A DNA stretch of 64,000 nt from a virus (IMGVR_UViG_3300009059_000716:30823-94822); one strand, 5' to 3'; positions 4,865 through 53,330 are shown, counted from the stretch's first letter. Numbers and translations: made by a program. Notes: generated by a model not told the origin, from the sequence alone.

Positions 4865-6313
4865 ATGACTGACAAATTTGGTTATATCCCAAAAGACGAA
4901 AGAAAAAACGTCTTACTTTTATGTGATGATATTCGAATGCATTCCGGTATTGCTACTATGGCAAGAGAGTTTGTAGTTGGAACAGCACAACATTTTAATT
5001 GGTTTCAAGTAGGAGCAGCTTTACAGCATCCAGACGCAGGAAAGGTGTTTGACCTGTCAGAAGACATAAATAACCGTACCGGTATAAAGGATGCTTCTGT
5101 AAAAGTAATGCCTAATAACGGCTATGGAGATGCTACATTGATTAGAAGGTTACTTAAACAAGAAAAACCAGATGCTATCTTTATCTTTACGGATCCAAGA
5201 TACTGGACATGGCTGTTTGAAATCGAAAGAGAGATTAGATCTCAAATTCCAATTATGTGGTTAAACATCTGGGATGACTATCCTGCACCGATGTATAATA
5301 AAAGCTATTACGACTCAGTAGATGTCTTAATGGCAATCTCTAAACAAACTAAAAATATTAACGAATTAGTTTTAGGAGAAGAAGCTAAAAATAAACTCAT
5401 TAAGTATGTACCTCATGGTATTAACAGTAACGACTTCTTTCCTATCACAAAAGATCATAAATTATATCCAGACTTAGTTAAGTTTAAACAAGATACTATT
5501 CCAAATAAGGATGTAGAGTTTGTAGTTTACTTTAACTCAAGAAACATTAACAGAAAGAGACCAGGAGACGTAATTCTATCTTATAAATTCTTCTGTGACA
5601 GAATAGGAAAAGAAGCAGCTAAGAAATGTGCTTTAGTGATGCATACAGCAGCAGTAGATCAAAATGGAACTGATCTAAGAGCTGTAAAAGAAGCATTAAC
5701 AGATCCAGAATATGTTAACATTTATTTCTCTCAGGCTAAGATTAATACAGCCCAGATGAATATGATGTACAACATGGCTGATGTTACTATGTTAATCTCA
5801 TCTAATGAAGGATGGGGATTATCTTTGACAGAATCTATGATGGCAGGTACAATGATAGTTGGTGCTGTTACAGGAGGAATGCAAGATCAAATGAGATTCG
5901 AAGACGGTAATGGTAACTGGGTTGATTTTAGTTCTGACTTTCCTTCCAATCATAGAGGTACAATTAAACAATGCGGAGATTGGGTTGAACCAGTCTTCCC
6001 ATCAAACATCTCATTAACAGGTTCACCTTCTACTCCATATATTTTTGACGACAGAGTTTCATCAGAAGATGTAGCCATAGCTTTAGAGAAAGTATATAAC
6101 TTATCTACAGAAGAGAGAATCAAAAACGGACTGAAAGGTAGAGAATGGGTTACTTCAGACGAATCTCAAATGTCAGCCGATACAATGTGTAAGAACATTA
6201 TAGAGGTTATGGATGAAGGATTCAAAACATTTAAACCTAGACCAAGTTTTGAAATTCATAAAGCTGGTCCAAGACCATTAAAGAAAGTTACACATAAATT
6301 AACAGGTTATTAA
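4865..6313 (+). CDS. Glycosyltransferase, GT-B (GT4-like)
   Basis: SGIAT N-terminal motif, VPHGI, RKRPGD, EGWGLSLTESM. Confidence 0.9.
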   Translation: MTDKFGYIPKDERKNVLLLCDDIRMHSGIATMAREFVVGTAQHFNWFQVGAALQHPDAGKVFDLSEDINNRTGIKDASVKVMPNNGYGDATLIRRLLKQEKPDAIFIFTDPRYWTWLFEIEREIRSQIPIMWLNIWDDYPAPMYNKSYYDSVDVLMAISKQTKNINELVLGEEAKNKLIKYVPHGINSNDFFPITKDHKLYPDLVKFKQDTIPNKDVEFVVYFNSRNINRKRPGDVILSYKFFCDRIGKEAAKKCALVMHTAAVDQNGTDLRAVKEALTDPEYVNIYFSQAKINTAQMNMMYNMADVTMLISSNEGWGLSLTESMMAGTMIVGAVTGGMQDQMRFEDGNGNWVDFSSDFPSNHRGTIKQCGDWVEPVFPSNISLTGSPSTPYIFDDRVSSEDVAIALEKVYNLSTEERIKNGLKGREWVTSDESQMSADTMCKNIIEVMDEGFKTFKPRPSFEIHKAGPRPLKKVTHKLTGY

Positions 6314-6314
6314 G

Positions 6315-7574
6315 ATGAGTAAACCATTAGCAGTAGTAAGCTGCCCTATAGACACATATTCAGGATACGGAGCAAGAGCAAGAGACTTTGTAAAAGCTTT
6401 GATCGATTTAGATAAGTACGACGTAAAGGTTTTATCTCAAAGATGGGGTAACACTAGATTTGGTTATTTAGAAGATCATAATGAAGATGATTTAAGTTCT
6501 AGAATTATACCTAACATGACTGTTAAACCAGACTTATGGGTACAGATTACAGTACCGAATGAGTTTCAAAAAGTAGGTAAGTTTAACCTAGGAGTTACCG
6601 CTGGAATGGAAACTACATTAGTTCATAATACTTGGATTGAAGGATGTAATAGAATGGATCTAAACCTAGTATCATCAGAACATAGTAAAAAGACTTTTTT
6701 AGATACTGTGTATATTAAAGAGGATACTAAAACAAAACAACCTACTGGAGAATTAAGATTAACATCTCCTATGGAGGTTTTATTAGAAGGAGCTGATTTA
6801 ACTAAATACTTTCCGACTACAAGTTCATTAGACTTATCTCCTATAAAAGAATCATTTTGTTTCTTATTTGTAGGTCATTGGTTAAATGGTGACTTTGGTC
6901 AAGATAGAAAAAATGTAGGGTATATGATTAAATCTTTCTTAGAGACATTTAAGAATAAAAAAGATGCACCTGCTTTGATTCTAAAGACTAGTCAAGTTAC
7001 TACTTCTATTACGGATAGAGAAGCAGTATTAGATAAGATAGAACAAATTAGACAATCAGTTAAAGGTACCTTACCAAACATCTATCTCTTCCATGGAGAT
7101 GTAAGTGATTCGGAAATGAATGAACTTTACAATCATCCAAAAGTAAAAGCGATGATTTCGTTTACTAAAGGAGAAGGATTTGGAAGACCGTTATTGGAAT
7201 TCAGCCTTGTTAATAAACCTATCATAGCTTCAGGTTGGTCTGGACATGTAGACTTTTTAGATAAAGAATTTACAAACCTAGTAAGCGGGGAGTTAACACC
7301 AGTACATCCATCAGCAGCATCTAAGGATATGATACTTACCGAAGCTAAATGGTTTAGTGCAGATGAAGCAGCAGTAGGAAGAATTTTAAAAACAGTACAC
7401 AAAGACTACAAAAAGTTCTTATCTTTATCTAAGAGACAAGGACATAAAAGTAGAACAGAGTTTAGTTACGAAAAGATGGTAGAAGTATTAGGTAGAACAT
7501 TAGACCAATACGTTCCAGAATTTACTAAACAGATAGAATTAAATTTACCAAAATTAGATTTACCAAAATTATAG
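6315..7574 (+). CDS. Glycosyltransferase, GT-B (GT4-like)
   Basis: SGYG, DRKN, GEGFGRPLLE, WSGHVDF motifs. Confidence 0.9.
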   Translation: MSKPLAVVSCPIDTYSGYGARARDFVKALIDLDKYDVKVLSQRWGNTRFGYLEDHNEDDLSSRIIPNMTVKPDLWVQITVPNEFQKVGKFNLGVTAGMETTLVHNTWIEGCNRMDLNLVSSEHSKKTFLDTVYIKEDTKTKQPTGELRLTSPMEVLLEGADLTKYFPTTSSLDLSPIKESFCFLFVGHWLNGDFGQDRKNVGYMIKSFLETFKNKKDAPALILKTSQVTTSITDREAVLDKIEQIRQSVKGTLPNIYLFHGDVSDSEMNELYNHPKVKAMISFTKGEGFGRPLLEFSLVNKPIIASGWSGHVDFLDKEFTNLVSGELTPVHPSAASKDMILTEAKWFSADEAAVGRILKTVHKDYKKFLSLSKRQGHKSRTEFSYEKMVEVLGRTLDQYVPEFTKQIELNLPKLDLPKL

Positions 7575-22776: not shown

Positions 22777-22805
22777 GGTATAATTAAAAAATGATAATAA
22801 AGGTT

Positions 22806-24023
22806 ATGAAAAAAATTATTTTAAGTCTAAGCATTCTTTTTATAGTTAGCTGTACAAAAGATTCATTTACAGATACTGAACTTGAAAAAGTAATTGACAC
22901 AGTACCTATCGCAGATAACCCATTTAGTGTAACCTATACACCCGATTATACGAAACCTTCTTACTATACCAGATTGCCATTTCCAGAAAATGTAAAAAAT
23001 GGTACATATAGAGAGTTTAGCAATTGGCACCCTCCTCTAGAAGCTGTAGTTTTAGACTACGATAAAGATGGTTACTTAGACATTATAGACAATCAATCAG
23101 ACTACGGGGTATTTAGAAGAAACAGTATACTATTTCTAAAAGGTAATTCTTCTGGTAAGTTAGATATTGATAGGGAGAACTCATATAAACATACTGGTCT
23201 CATTCATGGGCGGAAAGGTCTTGTAGGTGATTACAATGGAGATGGATGGCCAGATGTATTTTTTATTGGACATGGATACGATGTAGTAGACGGAAATCCA
23301 AGAGATGAATACCCCATAATGCTCCTTAATAATCAGGGGAAAGATTTTGAATATAGAGCTTTTGAATCAGTAGTTGGTTTTTTTCATACGGGTGCTAGTG
23401 GAGATATAGATAACGATGGAGATTTAGATATACTAGTAATTGACGGTACTAAAGGAGTTAGTAATTCTTATATCTTTATCAACGACGGAAGTGGTAACTT
23501 TGAAAAGAAAACTTTAGATCAATATTCGTCTATACCTAATAATCTCTATGATTCATTTTTCCAAAAATGGACTGTGGAACTAAAAGATATAGACAACAAC
23601 GGGTACTTAGATATTATAATAGCTGGTGCACCGGATATGTATGATAGTACACCGCCTACTATAATGTTGAATTCTGCAAATGGATTTACCAGTAAAATTG
23701 AACTACCAAGAGAACCTGTATATAAATTAGTTGTAGATATAGACTTTTATGATTTTGATGGTGACGGGATAGATGAGTTAATACTAAACAGAACACCTTT
23801 AAATTATATATCTTATAAAGTTACTATTCATAGTTTAACTAGTGACGAGTACTTAACCACTACCTACTTCAATAACAGTGAGTATACAGGTCAGACTTCA
23901 GATAAATGGATGTATTGGATTTCTATCATTGAAAAAGATGGGGAACTATATTTAAAGGGAGACGATATGTATACTCCACATGAATGGATTTTTGAAGATG
24001 GAAAGTTTAAAAAAATAAAATAA
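22806..24023 (+). CDS. FG-GAP/VCBS-repeat beta-propeller lipoprotein
   Basis: aaggttATG at 22806; MKKIILSLSILFIVS-C lipoprotein signal; DYDKDGYLD, DYNGDGWPD, DIDNDGDLD, DIDNNGYLD, DFDGDGIDE repeats. Confidence 0.85.
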   Translation: MKKIILSLSILFIVSCTKDSFTDTELEKVIDTVPIADNPFSVTYTPDYTKPSYYTRLPFPENVKNGTYREFSNWHPPLEAVVLDYDKDGYLDIIDNQSDYGVFRRNSILFLKGNSSGKLDIDRENSYKHTGLIHGRKGLVGDYNGDGWPDVFFIGHGYDVVDGNPRDEYPIMLLNNQGKDFEYRAFESVVGFFHTGASGDIDNDGDLDILVIDGTKGVSNSYIFINDGSGNFEKKTLDQYSSIPNNLYDSFFQKWTVELKDIDNNGYLDIIIAGAPDMYDSTPPTIMLNSANGFTSKIELPREPVYKLVVDIDFYDFDGDGIDELILNRTPLNYISYKVTIHSLTSDEYLTTTYFNNSEYTGQTSDKWMYWISIIEKDGELYLKGDDMYTPHEWIFEDGKFKKIK

Positions 24024-24422
24024 ATGATAAAAGGAGTAATTGCCGGAAACTTTGACGTAATGCATCCAGGCTACATAAAGATGTTTAAAGAAGCAGCAGC
24101 AAATTGCGACTGTTTAGTAGTCTTACTTCATACTGACCCTTCTATTGAACGCCCACATAAGCTTAAACCTATTCTATCTATAGAAGAACGTAAAGAGATG
24201 TTGTTTGAATTAAAATCAATATGTGGCATACTTACGTATACTTATGAAGAACAGCTCTTAGACTTACTAAAAATGGGGGAGTTTGATGTAAGGTTCCTTG
24301 GAGATGATTATAAAGGTAAGCCTTTTACTGGAGACTATCTAAACATTCCTATTTATTATTTGAATAGGGATCACGGGTGGTCTACTACAAAGTTTAAAAA
24401 AATGATAGCTAAAACTGTATGA
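24024..24422 (+). CDS. Cytidylyltransferase-like (TagD/HIGH family) nucleotidyltransferase
   Basis: GNFDVMHPGY, ERKEML, LGDDY, WSTT. Confidence 0.85.
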   Translation: MIKGVIAGNFDVMHPGYIKMFKEAAANCDCLVVLLHTDPSIERPHKLKPILSIEERKEMLFELKSICGILTYTYEEQLLDLLKMGEFDVRFLGDDYKGKPFTGDYLNIPIYYLNRDHGWSTTKFKKMIAKTV

Positions 24423-24608
24423 TAATACAGGAAAAGATTTTAACCCCTCACCTAGCTACAGAAGTTACTTCCGGAAAACGTTTAGTACTCGTATAATGTT
24501 CTTAAGACAAGAAAACTTACAAATTAAAAGTGGATTAATTTGAATCTTCTTATTAGATTACAAAACATACCTATATTTATATTAAATAAAGCTTTATAAC
24601 TTATAATC

Positions 24609-26813
24609 ATGAAAGGAACCCTTTTTTCAACAGATTTTGTTAAAGACTCTAATGGAAACTTAAGATTGCTTGAAATCAATACAGATACTGCTATTGTTTC
24701 TTCTGCAATCAAACAATTAGACTTTACAGGATTTAAACAAGTATTAGAAAGTAATTCTATTACAAAAGTAAAGACAATCCATAAACTATATCAAGAAGAT
24801 ATCGTAGAAGCATTAAAAGCATACTTAGATGCAAATGTACCTTCAGTAAACTCTTTTGAAAGTATAGTTGAAGATAGCAACACTATTTATCCTACATCTG
24901 TAGAAGATGCAGCAGATACCTTTATCTTAAGGTTAGCTTATGATGAAGCTGCATTATTAGATAGTGAATATGCTAAAAACACACACAATATTCTAAAACT
25001 ATTCAGCGACAATGGGCAAATTAGTTCAACAGTTGGGTATTATTATGCTGGAGGCGGTAGTATAGAAGACCACCTTACAAGAGATTTTAATGCTGAAAAC
25101 GTTCCTGATATTTTAGTTAAAAACTTGAACACTACTTTAGGAGAGCCGATTGAGTTCTTTAAAATAGGTCAATCAAGTAAGACAGCTGAAGATAGATTTG
25201 CTGATGTATTCGATATGTTAGATGATACTAAAATTGCTATGAACTTCTACAACGATGAAGCAGCAGCAAAAGTAGAATCTTTTAGAACATTACACATAGT
25301 ATACGGAAGCGACCTAAACGTTATCGATGTAGCAGGATTTAAATCTTCAGCTATATTAGATAAACCAGCTTCTCTATCAGTAGTAGATGAAGATATAGTA
25401 ACGAAAGTAGATGTAAAGCACTACCATGAATTAACTACTACATTACCTAGATTTGGAGTAGGTTCTAACTACGGAGGTATCTTTGAAGAAGAGTTTATTG
25501 TAAAAGCAGACGGTACGTTAGTACCTATTAAAGACGCTACAGTAGGAGATTCCTTTAAATCATACTTTATTTCAGGTTCACCCGATACAGACATTGAATC
25601 AGAATATCTAGCATGGACTTACCCAGGATCTGAATTACCTAGTGGTTCTTACGCTACAACTTCTACTTTAGTAAACAACTTAGAAGTAGGTTTATTCTAT
25701 AATATGATCTTCCACGTAACTTTACAAGACGGAAGTGATTTTAGAGCAACAGGAAACTCTCACGTATTAGTTTACGATGTACAGGCAGACTTATTAAAGT
25801 ATGTTGCAGTAAACTATCTATCATCAGATAAACATAAATTAATATCTGCAGGAAATGGATTAGTAGATATTACAGGAGTTGTTTGTGAGATATTAGATGG
25901 GGAGTATTCTTCTCATATTCTAGATATGGAAATAGCCGATACATTCTTCATCGGTGATGGACAATTAAGCGTTAAGATTGTTGCCCACAACTGCTTCCCA
26001 GCTGGTACTAAAATTACAATGGCTGATGGTTCAGTCAAAAACATTGAAGACGTTAAGGCAGGAGATAAACTATTAACTATCAACGAAAATACTTTAGAAC
26101 AATCAGAAGGTAGAGTTGGAGATGTATTAGTTAAGAAAGATAGATTGTTATTCGAATTCAAATTAGAAGACGGAGGAGTAATCAAATCTACATCTCATCA
26201 CAGATATTTCGTAAAAGAAAAGTCATGGTTAACTGCTCAAGATATTCAAGTAGGAGACGTATTAGTTAGATCAAACGGAGATGATGTCAAAGTAGAATCA
26301 ATTGAACAGCACGAAGGTGAGTTTGAAGTATTCCATATTATTGATGTAAAAGATAACCATACTTACTACGCAGAAGATATTTTAGTTCATAACTATAAAG
26401 CTTGTTTCATCGCTGGAACAGAGATTACTTTAGCGAATGGAGATGTTAAAAATATCGAAGATGTAGCAGTAGGAGAAGAAGTTCTTACTTACAACGAAGA
26501 TAAAAAAGAAACAGAAGCAGGAGTAGTAGGAGACTTGAAGAAACATGAAGTTCAATCTGTAATCAGATTAACTCTTGATAATGAGAATGTAATCGTAACA
26601 ACTGAAGAACATCCTTTCTATGTAGTAGATGCAGGATGGGTAAAAGCAGGAGAATTACAACCATTAGATGTTTGTTTAAAAGAAGACGGTAAAGAATCTC
26701 TAATCTCTTCAGTAGAGGTATTAGAAGAGAAACATGAAGTATTTAACTTACTAAGCGTTTCTGAAAACCATAACTTCTTCGCTAACGGAATATTAGTTCA
26801 CAATAAAAAATAA
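24609..26813 (+). CDS. Circularly permuted ATP-grasp-like domain fused to three tandem Hint (intein-like) domains
   Basis: N-terminal DFVKDSNGNLRLLEINTDT; Hint1 aa290-461 (Gly at position 1, ends VAHN), Hint2 aa462-595 (CFPAGT..TSHH..LVHN), spacer YKA, Hint3 aa599-732 (CFIAGT..TEEHPF..LVHN), then KK-stop. Confidence 0.8.
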   Translation: MKGTLFSTDFVKDSNGNLRLLEINTDTAIVSSAIKQLDFTGFKQVLESNSITKVKTIHKLYQEDIVEALKAYLDANVPSVNSFESIVEDSNTIYPTSVEDAADTFILRLAYDEAALLDSEYAKNTHNILKLFSDNGQISSTVGYYYAGGGSIEDHLTRDFNAENVPDILVKNLNTTLGEPIEFFKIGQSSKTAEDRFADVFDMLDDTKIAMNFYNDEAAAKVESFRTLHIVYGSDLNVIDVAGFKSSAILDKPASLSVVDEDIVTKVDVKHYHELTTTLPRFGVGSNYGGIFEEEFIVKADGTLVPIKDATVGDSFKSYFISGSPDTDIESEYLAWTYPGSELPSGSYATTSTLVNNLEVGLFYNMIFHVTLQDGSDFRATGNSHVLVYDVQADLLKYVAVNYLSSDKHKLISAGNGLVDITGVVCEILDGEYSSHILDMEIADTFFIGDGQLSVKIVAHNCFPAGTKITMADGSVKNIEDVKAGDKLLTINENTLEQSEGRVGDVLVKKDRLLFEFKLEDGGVIKSTSHHRYFVKEKSWLTAQDIQVGDVLVRSNGDDVKVESIEQHEGEFEVFHIIDVKDNHTYYAEDILVHNYKACFIAGTEITLANGDVKNIEDVAVGEEVLTYNEDKKETEAGVVGDLKKHEVQSVIRLTLDNENVIVTTEEHPFYVVDAGWVKAGELQPLDVCLKEDGKESLISSVEVLEEKHEVFNLLSVSENHNFFANGILVHNKK

Positions 26814-26818
26814 GAATC

Positions 26819-26959
26819 ATGCCAGTAGTATATAAATCATTTGATTACCAAACAGAAGCAAGAGACAAAGCAGTAGAAGCAGCAGATGTAACTACAAAAC
26901 AGCAAATGAATGACATCGTTGCAAGCTTTGTAAATTTATTTAAAGCTAAACACCTATAG
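26819..26959 (+). CDS. 46-aa small protein (not in ORF track)
   Basis: MPVVYKSFDYQTEARDKAVEAADVTTKQQMNDIVASFVNLFKAKHL; fills the gap between Hint gene and oxygenases. Confidence 0.7.
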   Translation: MPVVYKSFDYQTEARDKAVEAADVTTKQQMNDIVASFVNLFKAKHL

Positions 26960-26973
26960 TATACAGCTTTAAA

Positions 26974-27501
26974 ATGGTTACTGAAAAAACGTTATTCTCA
27001 CAACAAGATTGCGAATACATTAAATCATTTTATGATGTAGCAATTGAGAAGAACGAAAAAGGTTTCAAAATAAACTCAGACAAATACCCACAAGGTATAG
27101 CAATAAAAGACGGTTCAGCAGTATCATGGAATGAAATCCAAAACGATACTCTGGACCGTTTCTTGTTAAGTAAGCTTATAGAGTTAGAAATAACTTCACT
27201 CCCTTATCTTAAGCTAATGAAGTACGGAGTCGGAAATGAAATGAAACCTCATAGAGATTTTCAGGCATATGATACAAGTACAATCTATAGATCAACAACA
27301 ATACAGCTAACCAGTCCGGAAGATTATAAAGGAGGAGAGTTATATGTAGAAGGAGTAAAAGCTAGTAATATACAAGGAACTGCAATTATGTTTAACCCCT
27401 ATCAAACACATTGGGTTACAGAGATTACTGAAGGAGAAAGATGGGTTATAGTAGCTTTTTTAGAAGAGTTTCATTTTAATACTAAGAAAAGTTTATTATG
27501 A
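26974..27501 (+). CDS. 2OG-Fe(II) oxygenase
   Basis: HRD..YKGGEL..HWV..GER; ends KKSLL. Confidence 0.9.
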   Translation: MVTEKTLFSQQDCEYIKSFYDVAIEKNEKGFKINSDKYPQGIAIKDGSAVSWNEIQNDTLDRFLLSKLIELEITSLPYLKLMKYGVGNEMKPHRDFQAYDTSTIYRSTTIQLTSPEDYKGGELYVEGVKASNIQGTAIMFNPYQTHWVTEITEGERWVIVAFLEEFHFNTKKSLL

Positions 27502-28007
27502 TTGATCAAAAAGTATTATTTACAGCAGAAGAATGTGAGTGGTTGAAATCCGCACAATCAACTATATACCCACCAGTAGAAGATACTAAATGGTGGGAGT
27601 CACATCGTATAAATTATAGATTTAAAAATATACAAGAAAGAGAAGTATTTGAACAGTCACGTTTAGATTTTGTTGCTAGTAGAGTTAAACAATTAGGAGT
27701 GAAATCTGTTCCTACATATAAAATTATACATTACGGTAAAGGTGGATTCTTCGCCCCTCACATAGATTCAGGGAGAAACCATCCAATTAGAAGAAAAACA
27801 TTATTAGTGCAGCTATCCTCTAAAGAAGATTATTCTGGAGGTGATATGTATGTTAAGGGTGTACTTTTTGAAAAGACAATAGGCAATACAATATTATTTG
27901 ATTCGTCATTAACTCATGAACTAAAATTAATAGAAGGAGGAAATAGATTAGTTATGGTCACATGGTTATCTATTTATAACCTTGAGAATCCTAAAACTTT
28001 ACTATGA
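27498..28007 (+). CDS. 2OG-Fe(II) oxygenase
   Basis: HID..YSGGD..HEL..GNR; ends PKTLL. Confidence 0.9.
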   Translation: MIDQKVLFTAEECEWLKSAQSTIYPPVEDTKWWESHRINYRFKNIQEREVFEQSRLDFVASRVKQLGVKSVPTYKIIHYGKGGFFAPHIDSGRNHPIRRKTLLVQLSSKEDYSGGDMYVKGVLFEKTIGNTILFDSSLTHELKLIEGGNRLVMVTWLSIYNLENPKTLL

Positions 28008-28528
28008 TAACAGTTAAACATAACGTACTGTCGGATAGAGAGGTAAACAAGCTACTCACTTTATGGTATGATACAAAACCTAACCATATTATAACAGACG
28101 GCTATAAGTATAATATTGAAGCAGTAGAGATTTTAGACTACATAGATAAATTAAAACTTTCGTATTCTTTTCCAAAAGAACACTATAGGGACTTTATACT
28201 ACAGACAATAGATGAAACACATAGCAAAGCTCCTAATCATGACAAATATCACCGACATGAAAATGAATGGACATATGTTATGTACTTAAATGATAACTAT
28301 CAAGGAGGAGAAATAGAGTTTACTAATGGAACTATCATTAAACCACAAGTAGGAGATGTTATATACTTTTCACCTGAAGAAGGACATAGAGTTAAACCCC
28401 CATATGATTTTACCGAACAGTATTTTAAACACAACGGTAAGAGTATTCTTATGAATAAAAGATGGTCACTTGTCGGATTCATGAATTCTGACATTATAAA
28501 CGAGAATAAAAAAACATGCTTAATTTAA
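28004..28528 (+). CDS. 2OG-Fe(II) oxygenase
   Basis: HRHE..YLNDNYQGGE..HRV..R; ends KKTCLI. Confidence 0.85.
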   Translation: MITVKHNVLSDREVNKLLTLWYDTKPNHIITDGYKYNIEAVEILDYIDKLKLSYSFPKEHYRDFILQTIDETHSKAPNHDKYHRHENEWTYVMYLNDNYQGGEIEFTNGTIIKPQVGDVIYFSPEEGHRVKPPYDFTEQYFKHNGKSILMNKRWSLVGFMNSDIINENKKTCLI

Positions 28529-29220
28529 TTTATACCTATTCAATCAAACTTAGCGGTAACAGTATAGAAAAATACGTTAAACTCCTAAATAAAGCATACC
28601 TACATAACAGTAAGTACCATTCTATAGTACTATATACCGATAGGGAGACATTACCGTATGTAGAAGATATTTTTCCGGAGATAAGATTAGTAGAAATAGA
28701 CAATCTTCAATTTATGGATGATATAAAAATGAAGATTATAGATAAACTTGAAAGCAATAGTATACTTACAGATTACGATATCTTTTTAAACTCACCTTTA
28801 ATACTTCCAGACAATTTTGATGTGTATGTAGATAGAAGAGGTAAGGTAAAAGAGTTAGTACTGTACAGCCATTTGTTTGAACATTTAAGACATGAAGGTT
28901 ATGGTATTTTTACTAAAGATGTAAATACCTATTTGAATGTAGGTATATTAAAAATCAACAGTGAACATAAAATAAAAGCTATTAAAGACGCATATTACGC
29001 TTTAAGAAATTGGTATGTGGATAATAAAATAGAAGAAAGAACTCAATTTACATACCATACAGGAGTATGCCCTTCTATAGCAGCTTTACAGTACAATTTA
29101 GATAAAATAGCTACTATAAGTAACTGGAAAGTATGTGAGATGAAAAAATACAACAACTACCATCATTTAGTTGGAGAAGATAAATTTAAAGAAATAAGCA
29201 CAAAAAATACTGTGATTTAG
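28516..29220 (+). CDS. DxD nucleotide-diphospho-sugar transferase-like protein (DUF6734-like)
   Basis: VLYTD, K, TDYD, NVGI, YHHLVG; ends KNTVI. Confidence 0.6.
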   Translation: MLNLIYTYSIKLSGNSIEKYVKLLNKAYLHNSKYHSIVLYTDRETLPYVEDIFPEIRLVEIDNLQFMDDIKMKIIDKLESNSILTDYDIFLNSPLILPDNFDVYVDRRGKVKELVLYSHLFEHLRHEGYGIFTKDVNTYLNVGILKINSEHKIKAIKDAYYALRNWYVDNKIEERTQFTYHTGVCPSIAALQYNLDKIATISNWKVCEMKKYNNYHHLVGEDKFKEISTKNTVI

Positions 29221-35641: not shown

Positions 35642-35820
35642 AGTTAGTATATACTCAAGAGACTATCAACTACATGGCTAAAATTAATCCTCAACTCATA
35701 GAAGATCTAGCCAAATACGGAGCACCAGAACCAGTCGAACTATTAGATGATAAGGGAACTATAATAAACAAGTACTATCTATATAATATTAATGAAGATA
35801 CTTCCGAACATATTAGCTAA
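35638..35820 (+). CDS. Hypothetical protein
   Basis: Coupled ORF. Confidence 0.55.
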   Translation: MKLVYTQETINYMAKINPQLIEDLAKYGAPEPVELLDDKGTIINKYYLYNINEDTSEHIS

Positions 35821-36322
35821 AGAATATGTTTCTTCTATACTTTCTAAACAAAAGCAGTTAGGGTATAAAGGAAGAGAATCATCTCCTATACATTTGAATT
35901 CTGCTATTGTAGAATGGAATATAGAAGGATATTGGAATAATGATGATGCAGTAGTACTTTCATTTGAAGATAAAGGCTTCGTATTTCTTCTATATACTTT
36001 TCAAAAGGATATAAACGGAACAGATAAACTCTACTGCGAAATAAGGCACATAGTAACATTAGAACAGTATAGAGGACAAGGTACCGGTAAGCAGTTAGTA
36101 GAAGCAACTGCAAAACACATGAAAGAGAGAGATTGTCAAATCTTAAAAGTCCTTTCAGATATTAAATCTAAAAACTTCTACATTAAAAATGGATTTGAGG
36201 TTTCCGGAATAACAAAGCACGGACTATCCTACTTCTGTAATGATATTACTTCTAGGAGAAATGTTTCAATGCCTGCTAGTGATTTTCCTTTTATGACTAA
36301 TTCTCCTAAATCAATATTATGA
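35792..36322 (+). CDS. GNAT acetyltransferase
   Basis: QYRGQGTGKQL, NFYIKNGF; ends PKSIL. Confidence 0.85.
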   Translation: MKILPNILAKEYVSSILSKQKQLGYKGRESSPIHLNSAIVEWNIEGYWNNDDAVVLSFEDKGFVFLLYTFQKDINGTDKLYCEIRHIVTLEQYRGQGTGKQLVEATAKHMKERDCQILKVLSDIKSKNFYIKNGFEVSGITKHGLSYFCNDITSRRNVSMPASDFPFMTNSPKSIL

Positions 36323-36840
36323 GAGGTATAATTAGAAATGTACTCAATCAATCTGATATAGACTCTATTTTTAAACTATATAATGAGTCTTCTAATATTG
36401 TTGAATTATATGGAGAGTTAAAAAATAGACATAACATTTCAAGTAATTTAGGAATGTTTCTTTTATCACATTTTACACAAAAAGAGTTTCAACCATTCCT
36501 TTCTAAAATTATACCTTCAATAGAAGCTAAAGAAAGAATTGAATTAGAAACTACTTCATGTAGGGTACTTAAATACACGAAAGATTGCTTTATTTCAAAA
36601 CATAGAGACATTAAAACTTCAGAAGCCAATTCAAGCCTTTCGGTAATAATACAGCTCTCTAATCAAGATGAGTACGTAGGAGGAAAAGCGATTATAGACG
36701 GAGAAGAAAGTATACTACAGCAAGGTGATTTAGAGTATTATACCTATAGTTACGAACATGAAGTTACTAAAATATTTTCCGGTTGTAGGTATGTTATTAA
36801 CTTACGAATTAATATCAAAAAAGATTCAACTTTAATATAA
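36319..36840 (+). CDS. 2OG-Fe(II) oxygenase
   Basis: HRD..YVGG..HEV..GCR; ends KDSTLI. Confidence 0.9.
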   Translation: MRGIIRNVLNQSDIDSIFKLYNESSNIVELYGELKNRHNISSNLGMFLLSHFTQKEFQPFLSKIIPSIEAKERIELETTSCRVLKYTKDCFISKHRDIKTSEANSSLSVIIQLSNQDEYVGGKAIIDGEESILQQGDLEYYTYSYEHEVTKIFSGCRYVINLRINIKKDSTLI

Positions 36841-52920: not shown

Positions 52921-53330
52921 TGGCATTTCAAATTCAAAAAATATACCCTCTAGATTTAGAACCTAGAAAAGCTATCGGAGTAGATTTACCTTTCTCTGGT
53001 AAAGCTGTATTTAATTCTAATTACTTAACTAAGGATGCTATTAGGAACAACCTAATTAATTATTTTTTGACTAATAAAGGTGAAAGGTACCTAAACCCTT
53101 CCTTTGGCTCTAATATTAGAAAAATGCTGTTTGAGAATATAACTCAAGATACATTACAGGATATTAAAGAGATTATAGCTGAAGATTTAGCCACATACTT
53201 CCCAAGAGTGGTACCAAAAACATTTGAACTAACAGCTACACCGAACTCTAATACTGTTAGGTTTTATTTGAAGTATACAATAGCAGACACAAATATAGAA
53301 GATGAACTTCTAATTAATATCGACCAATAA
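52920..53330 (+). CDS. Baseplate wedge protein, gp25-like
   Basis: NLINYFLTNKGERYLNPSFGS..LFE. Confidence 0.9.
   Translation: MAFQIQKIYPLDLEPRKAIGVDLPFSGKAVFNSNYLTKDAIRNNLINYFLTNKGERYLNPSFGSNIRKMLFENITQDTLQDIKEIIAEDLATYFPRVVPKTFELTATPNSNTVRFYLKYTIADTNIEDELLINIDQ

Follow-up and report, generated by a model that had tools for sequence, protein, structure and literature searches.

A phage gene joining a predicted circularly permuted ATP-grasp ligase to a half-disabled Hint domain and optional intein-like Hints in a lysine-ended tail

We analysed a 64,000 nt stretch of viral DNA (IMGVR_UViG_3300009059_000716:30823-94822; hereafter the window) and, within it, a plus-strand gene at 24609-26813 whose product ends in three tandem Hint domains, here numbered Hint1 to Hint3. 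The window is gene-dense, with coding on one strand, and comes from a large marine myophage; for its baseplate wedge protein, at 53330, the closest cultured phage is Flavobacterium phage vB_FspM_immuto (60.6% identity). The gene encodes a predicted ATP-grasp ligase domain, the degenerate Hint1 and two intact Hints that resemble bacterial intein-like (BIL) domains, and a small open reading frame (ORF) for a partner protein of 46 residues begins just behind it. The reading that we favour, with a probability of roughly 0.58, is that ligase, Hint1 and partner form a core and that the BIL-type Hints are optional elements which remove themselves from a lysine-ended tail, Hint3 being mobile and the short sequences YKA and KK, behind Hint2 and Hint3 respectively, being remnants.

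A first-pass annotation of the gene, made from its sequence, had described three tandem Hints with almost no extein closing this reading frame, and it was right in every coordinate. The junctions that it listed, His460-Asn461-Cys462, HN-YKA-C and HN-KK-stop, are all present in the translation and alignment. They are also strongly conserved: across 120 homologues G290, N461, C462, H594, N595, C599 and K733 occur in every sequence, H460 in 118, N732 in 119 and H731 in 114.

Hint2 and Hint3 appear from their sequences to be catalytically intact (Cys1, TxxH, His-Asn) and to be closest to type-A BIL domains. Pfam places Hint/intein domains at residues 462-595 and 599-732 (PT-HINT, 4.5e-29; Intein_splicing, 6e-21; Hint, 5e-13) and finds no homing-endonuclease family in the 734-residue protein. 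At the catalytic positions C462, T528, H531, C599 and H668 are invariant and T665 is conserved at 90% or above. The +1 residue is Tyr596 after Hint2 and Lys733 after Hint3, and across the family as a whole F, Y, L, K and R are found there. Among 335 intact Hints collected from 176 proteins, 333 begin with CF, 319 finish with HN and 301 have a basic residue, Lys or Arg, at +1 or +2. A phmmer search of the PDB puts the C. thermocellum BIL 2LWY first among sequences of known structure (E 1e-15), with Tetrahymena BIL2 at 6e-5 and the true inteins DnaB and DnaE at ~1e-4. The first-pass annotation had called these Hints BIL-like on the grounds that both lack a +1 Cys, Ser or Thr, and had noted no endonuclease; the translation, the Pfam results and the gap between BIL and intein scores bear this out. 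It had also taken the missing +1 nucleophile to imply cleavage only, and that part does not stand, since type-A BILs can ligate their flanks by aminolysis as well (PMC4031507). In these domains (Amitai 2003, Dassa 2004 and Aranko 2013, in the summary of PMC4031507), a thioester forms at the N-terminal side, Asn cyclisation cleaves the C-terminal side and the freed amino group can ligate the flanks, with cleavage dominating.

The phage domains share with the type-A BIL 2LWY Cys1, the block-B Thr and His, the terminal His-Asn, the absence of a +1 nucleophile and of an endonuclease, and a length of ~134 residues. Known BILs lie within variable secreted bacterial proteins, whereas here they follow one another at the very end of a phage enzyme, with a C-flank of 1-2 residues, a third, degenerate Hint in front of them, and a last Hint that passes between divergent genes as a cassette. 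In Pfam both score best with PT-HINT (PF07591; 4.5e-29, above the 27.7-bit cut-off), a family of C-terminal self-cleaving Hints of polymorphic toxins that release the part downstream; behind Hint3 there is only Lys-Lys and no toxin domain. Canonical mini-inteins (DnaB, DnaE, RecA, gp41-1) have the fold, the catalytic blocks A, B, F and G and, it appears, mobile behaviour in common with the phage Hints. These differ in being followed by Tyr or Lys rather than by Cys, Ser or Thr, with C-flanks of 3 or 2 residues, in lying outside the conserved catalytic sites of their host protein, and in a sequence nearer to BILs. The Hints of Hedgehog and Hog proteins share the fold and form an N-terminal thioester that activates the C-terminus of the upstream domain, as Hint2 and Hint3 may also do, but they lack a terminal His-Asn and possess a sterol-recognition region.

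Only a minority clade of the phage family (L010, L020, L025, L041; P0195, P0203, P0227, P0092) is similarly without the His-Asn pair: there the last Hint ends in Ser-Gly and is followed by a conserved tail of ~20 residues, LGDN-ELLN-x-x-F-K-R-Q..., a similar tail being found after HN-K in a few other members. Judged by their residues, these Ser-Gly Hints could form the thioester but would be unable to make the C-side cut. In the divergent members L058, L074, L018, L067 and L080 the intact Hint starts with a double Cys (C-C-F/I), which puts a Cys at -1.

Hint1 (residues 290-461) is a Hint fold as well, as had been proposed. Profile-profile comparison of family slices in hhalign pairs it with Hint2 at 96% probability (E 4.7e-9) and with Hint3 at 88%, against 0.2% for the N-terminal domain as control. 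The AlphaFold2 (AF2) model has a predicted local distance difference test score (pLDDT) of 88.4, and its best Foldseek match is again 2LWY (E 5.7e-8; TM 0.84 on the target), followed by Tetrahymena BIL2, the DnaB, DnaE and RecA inteins and Hedgehog, the E-values ranging from 5.7e-8 to 1e-4. The Gly in place of Cys1, the insertion at ~312-352 and the terminal HN are all where the first-pass annotation had put them. The domain thus has no N-terminal nucleophile, Gly290 being invariant in the close family (120/120); the block-B TxxH is unconserved, with His present at its position in less than 90% of sequences, and the block-F His is replaced by an invariant Asp. The terminal HN is kept across every subfamily, including 19 of 19 relatives with a six-Cys tail and nearly all representatives without a BIL. 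The insertion is the most conserved stretch of the domain: W336, G340, P344 and S352 are invariant, and G313, S318, G323, P325, G346, S347 and T350 are conserved at 90% or more. Together the models and the conservation suggest that Hint1 is an ancient domestication, half-disabled and now part of the core, which has kept its C-side residues only.

The N-terminal 289 residues are assigned from structural models to the circularly permuted ATP-grasp ligases, in the class of GspS, YgiC and eukaryotic glutathione synthetase. The AF2 model of this region (pLDDT 87.1) has its best Foldseek matches in E. coli YjfC, YgiC and GspS and in glutathione synthetases of human, yeast and plant origin (E 9e-7 to 1e-4; top probability 1.00), and an all-against-all structure search (VIA) recovered the same families at Z 9.1-7.2 over residues 1-281. 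In the latter search the classical ATP-grasps RimK, LysX/ArgX and Ddl align from residue ~50 onward only, at Z of 5.7 or less, which is the pattern that a circular permutation should give. The charged residues invariant among homologues (D9, E22, N24, K59, R108, D118, K171 and R226) are compatible with an active enzyme. Its opening motif, D-F...L-x-x-x-E-x-N-T-D, falls in register with D318, E330 and N332 of GspS, residues that presumably bind Mg and ATP; the register is the same in hhalign and in the structural alignment, the hhalign comparison with E. coli GspS being itself non-significant (probability 1%). Sequence profiles do not place residues 1-289 in Pfam GSP_synth or CP_ATPgrasp or with any PDB sequence. 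Searches of Pfam (E up to 10) and PHROG with residues 1-289, 290-461 and 1-460 gave no usable match, and the ligase-domain profile returned noise only from the PDB sequences, the best being a thioredoxin at E 0.09.

YgiC and YjfC are peptidyl-polyamine synthetases, as cited in PMC12568646. The phage domain resembles these peptide-spermidine ligases, the synthetase domain of GspS and the eukaryotic glutathione synthetases in its fold and in having the D...ExN strand pair first in the chain. It differs from them in being much smaller (289 residues), in showing no significant sequence or profile similarity, and in being fused to a Hint and paired, according to prediction, with a separate subunit of 46 residues. 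In graspetides, which are ribosomally synthesised and post-translationally modified peptides, a microviridin-type ATP-grasp modifies a conserved core motif in a separate precursor; here the ligase fold is of the GspS and not of the microviridin class, and the product of the small ORF is predicted to be a structural subunit on the non-catalytic face.

The partner ORF begins five bases past the stop codon of the gene. Nearly all of ~110 related viral loci have a homologous ORF of 42-50 residues that starts 2-38 nt downstream (87 nt in a single locus): it is present in 51 distinct loci from the subfamily of the window, two others being without it, and in 58 of 58 distinct loci of the six-Cys subfamily. 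Since both the gap and the frame differ among loci, the partner is a separate gene; recoding that would join it to the upstream frame was considered and dropped for the same reason. The small protein has an N-terminal strand, with an invariant Tyr5 and a nearly invariant Lys6 in the window's subfamily (in the six-Cys subfamily Ile takes the place of the Tyr), and at its C-terminus an amphipathic helix that is found family-wide. Complex prediction with the full-length protein gave an ipSAE score of 0.82 (0.81-0.83 in three runs), compared with 0.02 for the best of three controls; in calibration, the mark for this score was reached by 58 of 80 solved complexes, whereas of 110 mismatched pairs 2 did so. 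At least 95% of contacts are common to the three runs, and the partner pLDDT is at least 89. In the predicted complex the N-terminal strand of the partner pairs with strand 424-431 of Hint1, while its helix packs on T8, F10, L18, L20, I23, F225, T227, H229 and V231 and on helix 128-135, a hydrophobic sheet face opposite D9, E22, N24 and R226. The partner is therefore predicted to be a structural clamp that joins the ligase to Hint1, not a substrate. A role as active-site substrate was discarded on account of this position of the helix, and an attack of partner Lys6 on the Asn461-Cys462 bond because residues 458-462 are not among the predicted contacts.

The protein has 649 homologues at 100% coverage, and an exhaustive profile search of 1.84 billion representative proteins found 331 representative clusters, in all of which the ligase begins at residue 1. 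The family is essentially viral, on viral contigs of up to 334 kb; 185,579 prokaryote species genomes yielded a single match, on a 2.8-kb contig of a metagenome-assembled genome. A tblastn search of 50,697 cultured or deposited phage genomes gave isolated Hint matches only and no full-length match (vB_FspM_immuto was not among them), the ESM Atlas gave only leads below 0.9, and a search for stand-alone ligase domains produced no convincing case, only fragments from short contigs.

Differences in architecture are confined to the region behind the His-Asn of Hint1. A representative may have 0, 1, 2 or 3 intact Hints, and ~39 of 124 have none; these BIL-less forms close either with a tail of 1-10 residues that includes a Lys or with a conserved six-Cys mini-domain, behind which come a Gly/Pro linker and Lys. 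On a tree of the ligase domain built with FastTree, the presence of intact Hints switches at least 16 times. Where members of the six-Cys subfamily do carry a BIL, it lies exactly between the Gly-rich linker and KK, and their BIL-less relatives end with Cys domain, linker and K. The repeated switching, this insertion site and the transfer of Hint3 described below lead us to regard the intact Hints as optional elements inserted into the Lys tail. In the six-Cys subfamily itself (L083-L162, e.g. L083:5001-6503; P0295-P0331) the half-Hint HN is followed by a Trp/Tyr-rich Cys mini-domain of ~22 residues, which could be a zinc knuckle or a disulfide knot, and the Gly/Pro linker leads to a terminal Lys with or without a hydrophobic residue.

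Hint3 is 76-79% identical in protein to the terminal BIL of two relatives, L085 and P0303, with which the ligase domain shares 25-28% identity, and the Hint1 domains of these relatives give no BLAST match to that of the window. At the DNA level a block at 26402-26816 is 74.9% identical to L085 over 415 nt (blastn), in a gene whose ligase is 28% identical in protein. This block runs from one base ahead of the Cys1 codon to 3 nt beyond the stop and contains Hint3, the KK codons and the stop itself; the only further blastn match between the gene and L085 pairs a 61-nt stretch of Hint2 with the start of the same BIL. We read at least Hint3 as a mobile cassette, presumably self-removing, within the Lys-ended tail.

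The tail also bears on the suggestion in the first-pass annotation that processing releases YKA and KK as products. Alignment of the inter-Hint spacers, the check that it had named, reveals no fixed length or sequence: among the 120 homologues the Hint2-Hint3 spacer has 1-11 residues and may be a single R or K, FKYGGGS, or [FYL]K with variable Gly runs, and the Hint1-Hint2 junction ranges from 0 to ~14 residues. This variation, with its frequent Gly runs, makes YKA look like a linker. As for KK, Lys is the last residue in 68 of 123 family representatives (6.6 expected) and lies within the last three in 98 (18.8 expected), and since BIL-less relatives are equally Lys-ended, the terminal Lys belongs to the host protein and not to the Hint. 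Both sequences are thus more readily seen as linkers or junction remnants than as products. The other suggestion of the first-pass annotation, that the N-terminal domain is left with an activated C-terminus by which it could be attached to a target, may still hold.

The sequence of events that we propose is as follows. Ligase, half-disabled Hint1 and the bridging 46-residue protein would form the stable core of a phage amide ligase, behind which the ancestral protein would have had only a short Lys-ended tail. Two type-A BIL mini-Hints would then have been inserted in this tail, the last of them directly before the final Lys-Lys. After translation, Hint2 and Hint3 would form thioesters at Asn461-Cys462 and Ala598-Cys599, and succinimide formation would cleave the chain after Asn595 and Asn732. 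The Hints could be lost by plain cleavage, or the flanks could be rejoined when the freed amino group attacks the thioester, as for type-A BILs. What remains would be the ligase core, its tail bare or short (HN with or without YKA and KK), much as in the relatives that lack intact Hints.

Several observations weigh against this proposal. We infer the processing chemistry wholly from conserved residues. The Lys or Arg at +1 or +2 of 301 of 335 Hints could signify a functional nucleophile or a recognition element, and about two thirds of representatives keep at least one intact Hint, a high figure for a dispensable parasite. The Hints fall partly into positional classes, first-type and terminal-type, which suggests long retention and possibly a role. 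Cassette-like transfer is seen for Hint3 and not for Hint2, and no endonuclease or other homing machinery was identified. The Ser-Gly terminal Hints with their ~20-residue tail cannot excise cleanly, and in some clades Cys1 is preceded by Pro (HN-AP-C), a residue that work on inteins has found unfavourable for N-terminal cleavage.

The best supported alternative, which we still consider unlikely, is that the intact Hints are functional thioester generators that pass the carbonyl before Cys1 to an amine and so give an isopeptide or amide conjugate. Candidate amines would be the Lys at +1 or +2, the partner's Lys6, a lysine of some host or phage protein, and polyamines. Hedgehog proteins carry out the same acyl-transfer chemistry with cholesterol as acceptor. 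In BIL2 of the Tetrahymena BUBL polyubiquitin-like locus an isopeptide bond forms between a Lys epsilon-amine and a C-terminus, and the N-flank is joined, with no need for ATP, to several different substrates (PMC8616854). Structure and sequence searches both place BIL2 among the best matches of the phage Hints, most family representatives retain an intact Hint, the basic residue behind these Hints is prevalent (and K733 invariant), and the almost invariant Lys of the partner, beside its invariant Tyr, recalls the [FY]K that opens most spacers. The resemblance to BUBL BIL2 (PDB 6Y75/6TMM; Tetrahymena thermophila) extends to the arrangement of tandem intein-like domains between small flanks, where a Lys of the C-flank can resolve the thioester as an isopeptide; its flanks, however, are ubiquitin-like domains, whereas those of the phage Hints are a ligase core and linkers of 1-11 residues. 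Against thioester transfer, the terminal Lys is equally conserved in relatives without an intact Hint, and hence is not there for the Hint. Moreover, Arg, a poor nucleophile, often takes the place of Lys at internal junctions, the Hint3 cassette moves between divergent genes carrying its own KK-stop, and the partner Tyr is Ile in the six-Cys subfamily.

A more speculative scheme, to which we give little credence, is drawn by analogy from the peptide-spermidine ligases YgiC and YjfC and has the ligase modify its own Lys-ended tail in cis, linking the carboxylate at its end to an amine, for instance a polyamine or an amino acid. The His-Asn of Hint1 would then release the tail through a succinimide, the intact BILs would control whether or when the tail can be reached, and a C-terminal tag on neighbouring oxygenases (K-x-[ST]-hydrophobic-[LI]; see below) would mark further substrates or docking partners. 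If this were true, the protein would be a single-turnover fusion of enzyme and substrate yielding a modified peptide, and in sister subfamilies that tail would be the six-Cys peptide.

It is improbable that the Hints do no processing and are instead parts of the ligase for structure, scaffolding or substrate binding, as Hint1 evidently is. Hint1 illustrates that such a domestication can happen, having lost Cys1 and TxxH and yet being universally kept, with a conserved insertion and a predicted place in partner binding. The catalytic positions of Hint2 and Hint3, by contrast, are invariant or nearly so over hundreds of copies, and about a third of the family can do without intact Hints. We regard as very improbable a peptide factory in which double cleavage frees YKA, possibly as a thioester, and KK as bioactive or reactive products. 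The geometry would permit it, in that a peptide between an Asn-cyclising and a thioester-forming Hint would leave with an activated C-terminus, but the spacers are conserved in neither length nor sequence and often amount to one basic residue or a Gly run, many relatives have a single intact Hint (and so no inter-Hint peptide) or none, and the final K or KK belongs to the host tail. Hardly any weight can be given to canonical inteins that splice a C-extein to the ligase, with the small ORF reached by recoding or with Hint1 acting as a class-2 intein through Cys462: blocks F and G of Hint2 and Hint3 are intein-like and a Cys directly follows Hint1 in the window's clade, but the +1 residues are Tyr and Lys, the small ORF begins 2 to 87 nt further on in a frame that differs between loci, other clades have A, S, D, L, P, V, Y or N behind the Asn of Hint1, and Hint1 is predicted to lie inside a folded core.

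If self-removal of optional Hints from the tail is correct, a single gene family holds three fates of the Hint fold: a domesticated structural half-Hint, intact self-cutting BILs, and a cassette that jumps between genes whose ligases are 28% identical. The reduction of the C-flank to as little as one lysine would offer a natural test of type-A BIL cleavage and ligation without a nucleophile, and such BILs are a possible source of compact self-removing tags. The two-gene module itself, a permuted ATP-grasp with half-Hint and a 46-residue clamp, is found in hundreds of large aquatic phages, often beside genes for 2-oxoglutarate (2OG) oxygenases or SET-domain proteins. Literature searches for fusions of ATP-grasp and Hint domains returned nothing relevant, and the substrate of the ligase, which we infer to be active, would once found reveal a phage-encoded amide-ligation step on a protein, peptide or polyamine that is new with respect to that literature.

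Table 1. Positions in the window of the gene, its domains and linkers, and the genes that follow.
Feature	Coordinates	Strand	Basis
Whole gene: predicted ATP-grasp ligase, half-disabled Hint and two BIL-type Hints, with KK end	24609..26813	+	ORF list; translation, 734 aa
Predicted circularly permuted ATP-grasp ligase domain, aa 1-289	24609..25475	+	AF2 model, Foldseek, VIA
Hint1, putatively domesticated half-Hint, aa 290-461	25476..25991	+	hhalign, AF2, Foldseek; nt 25476 = codon 290
Insertion loop of Hint1, aa ~312-352	25542..25664	+	Gapped against Hint2 and Hint3 in hhalign
Hint2, apparently intact, type-A BIL-like, aa 462-595	25992..26393	+	Pfam; Cys462, T528..H531, His594-Asn595
YKA, variable Hint2-Hint3 linker (putative), aa 596-598	26394..26402	+	Spacer comparison, 120 homologues
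Hint3, apparently intact, type-A BIL-like, in putative mobile cassette, aa 599-732	26403..26804	+	Pfam; protein identity to L085 and P0303, DNA identity to L085
Terminal Lys-Lys and stop codon; C-terminal Lys of the host protein acting as 'C-extein'	26805..26813	+	K733 in 120/120 homologues
ORF of the 46-aa partner protein	26819..26959	+	Synteny across loci; complex prediction
Three tandem 2OG-Fe(II) oxygenases (genomic context)	26974..28528	+	Pfam 2OG-FeII_Oxy_3, 1e-9 to 2e-8

Of 51 related loci, at least 21 have a 2OG oxygenase gene next after the partner, and 15 have one for a SET-domain protein there. The latter, of ~145 residues (e.g. L020:6416-6850, L027:10498-10929 and L035:10897-11331), is a putative protein lysine methyltransferase. 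Within the window, six of 79 plus-strand ORFs (at 26974-29220 and 35792-36840) end in [STC]-[LIVM]-[LI] with a Lys 3-5 residues upstream, where ~0.5 would be expected by chance. The tags read KKSLL, PKTLL, KKTCLI, TKNTVI, PKSIL and KKDSTLI, four of them on genes directly after ligase and partner, and they could mark docking partners or substrates of the ligase. On the other side of the gene, a 25-codon ORF at 24419-24496 overlaps the stop of a cytidylyltransferase gene; it closes with HLATEVTSGKRLVLV, which is similar to the strand at the C-terminus of the 2OG oxygenases nearby, and the ORF is probably the remnant of a collapsed oxygenase gene. Directly upstream, 22791-24422 encodes a 410-residue FG-GAP repeat protein with a lipoprotein-like N-terminus, together with this small cytidylyltransferase. 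With two glycosyltransferases at 4865-7574, these genes make up a surface- or glycan-modifying set in the phage.

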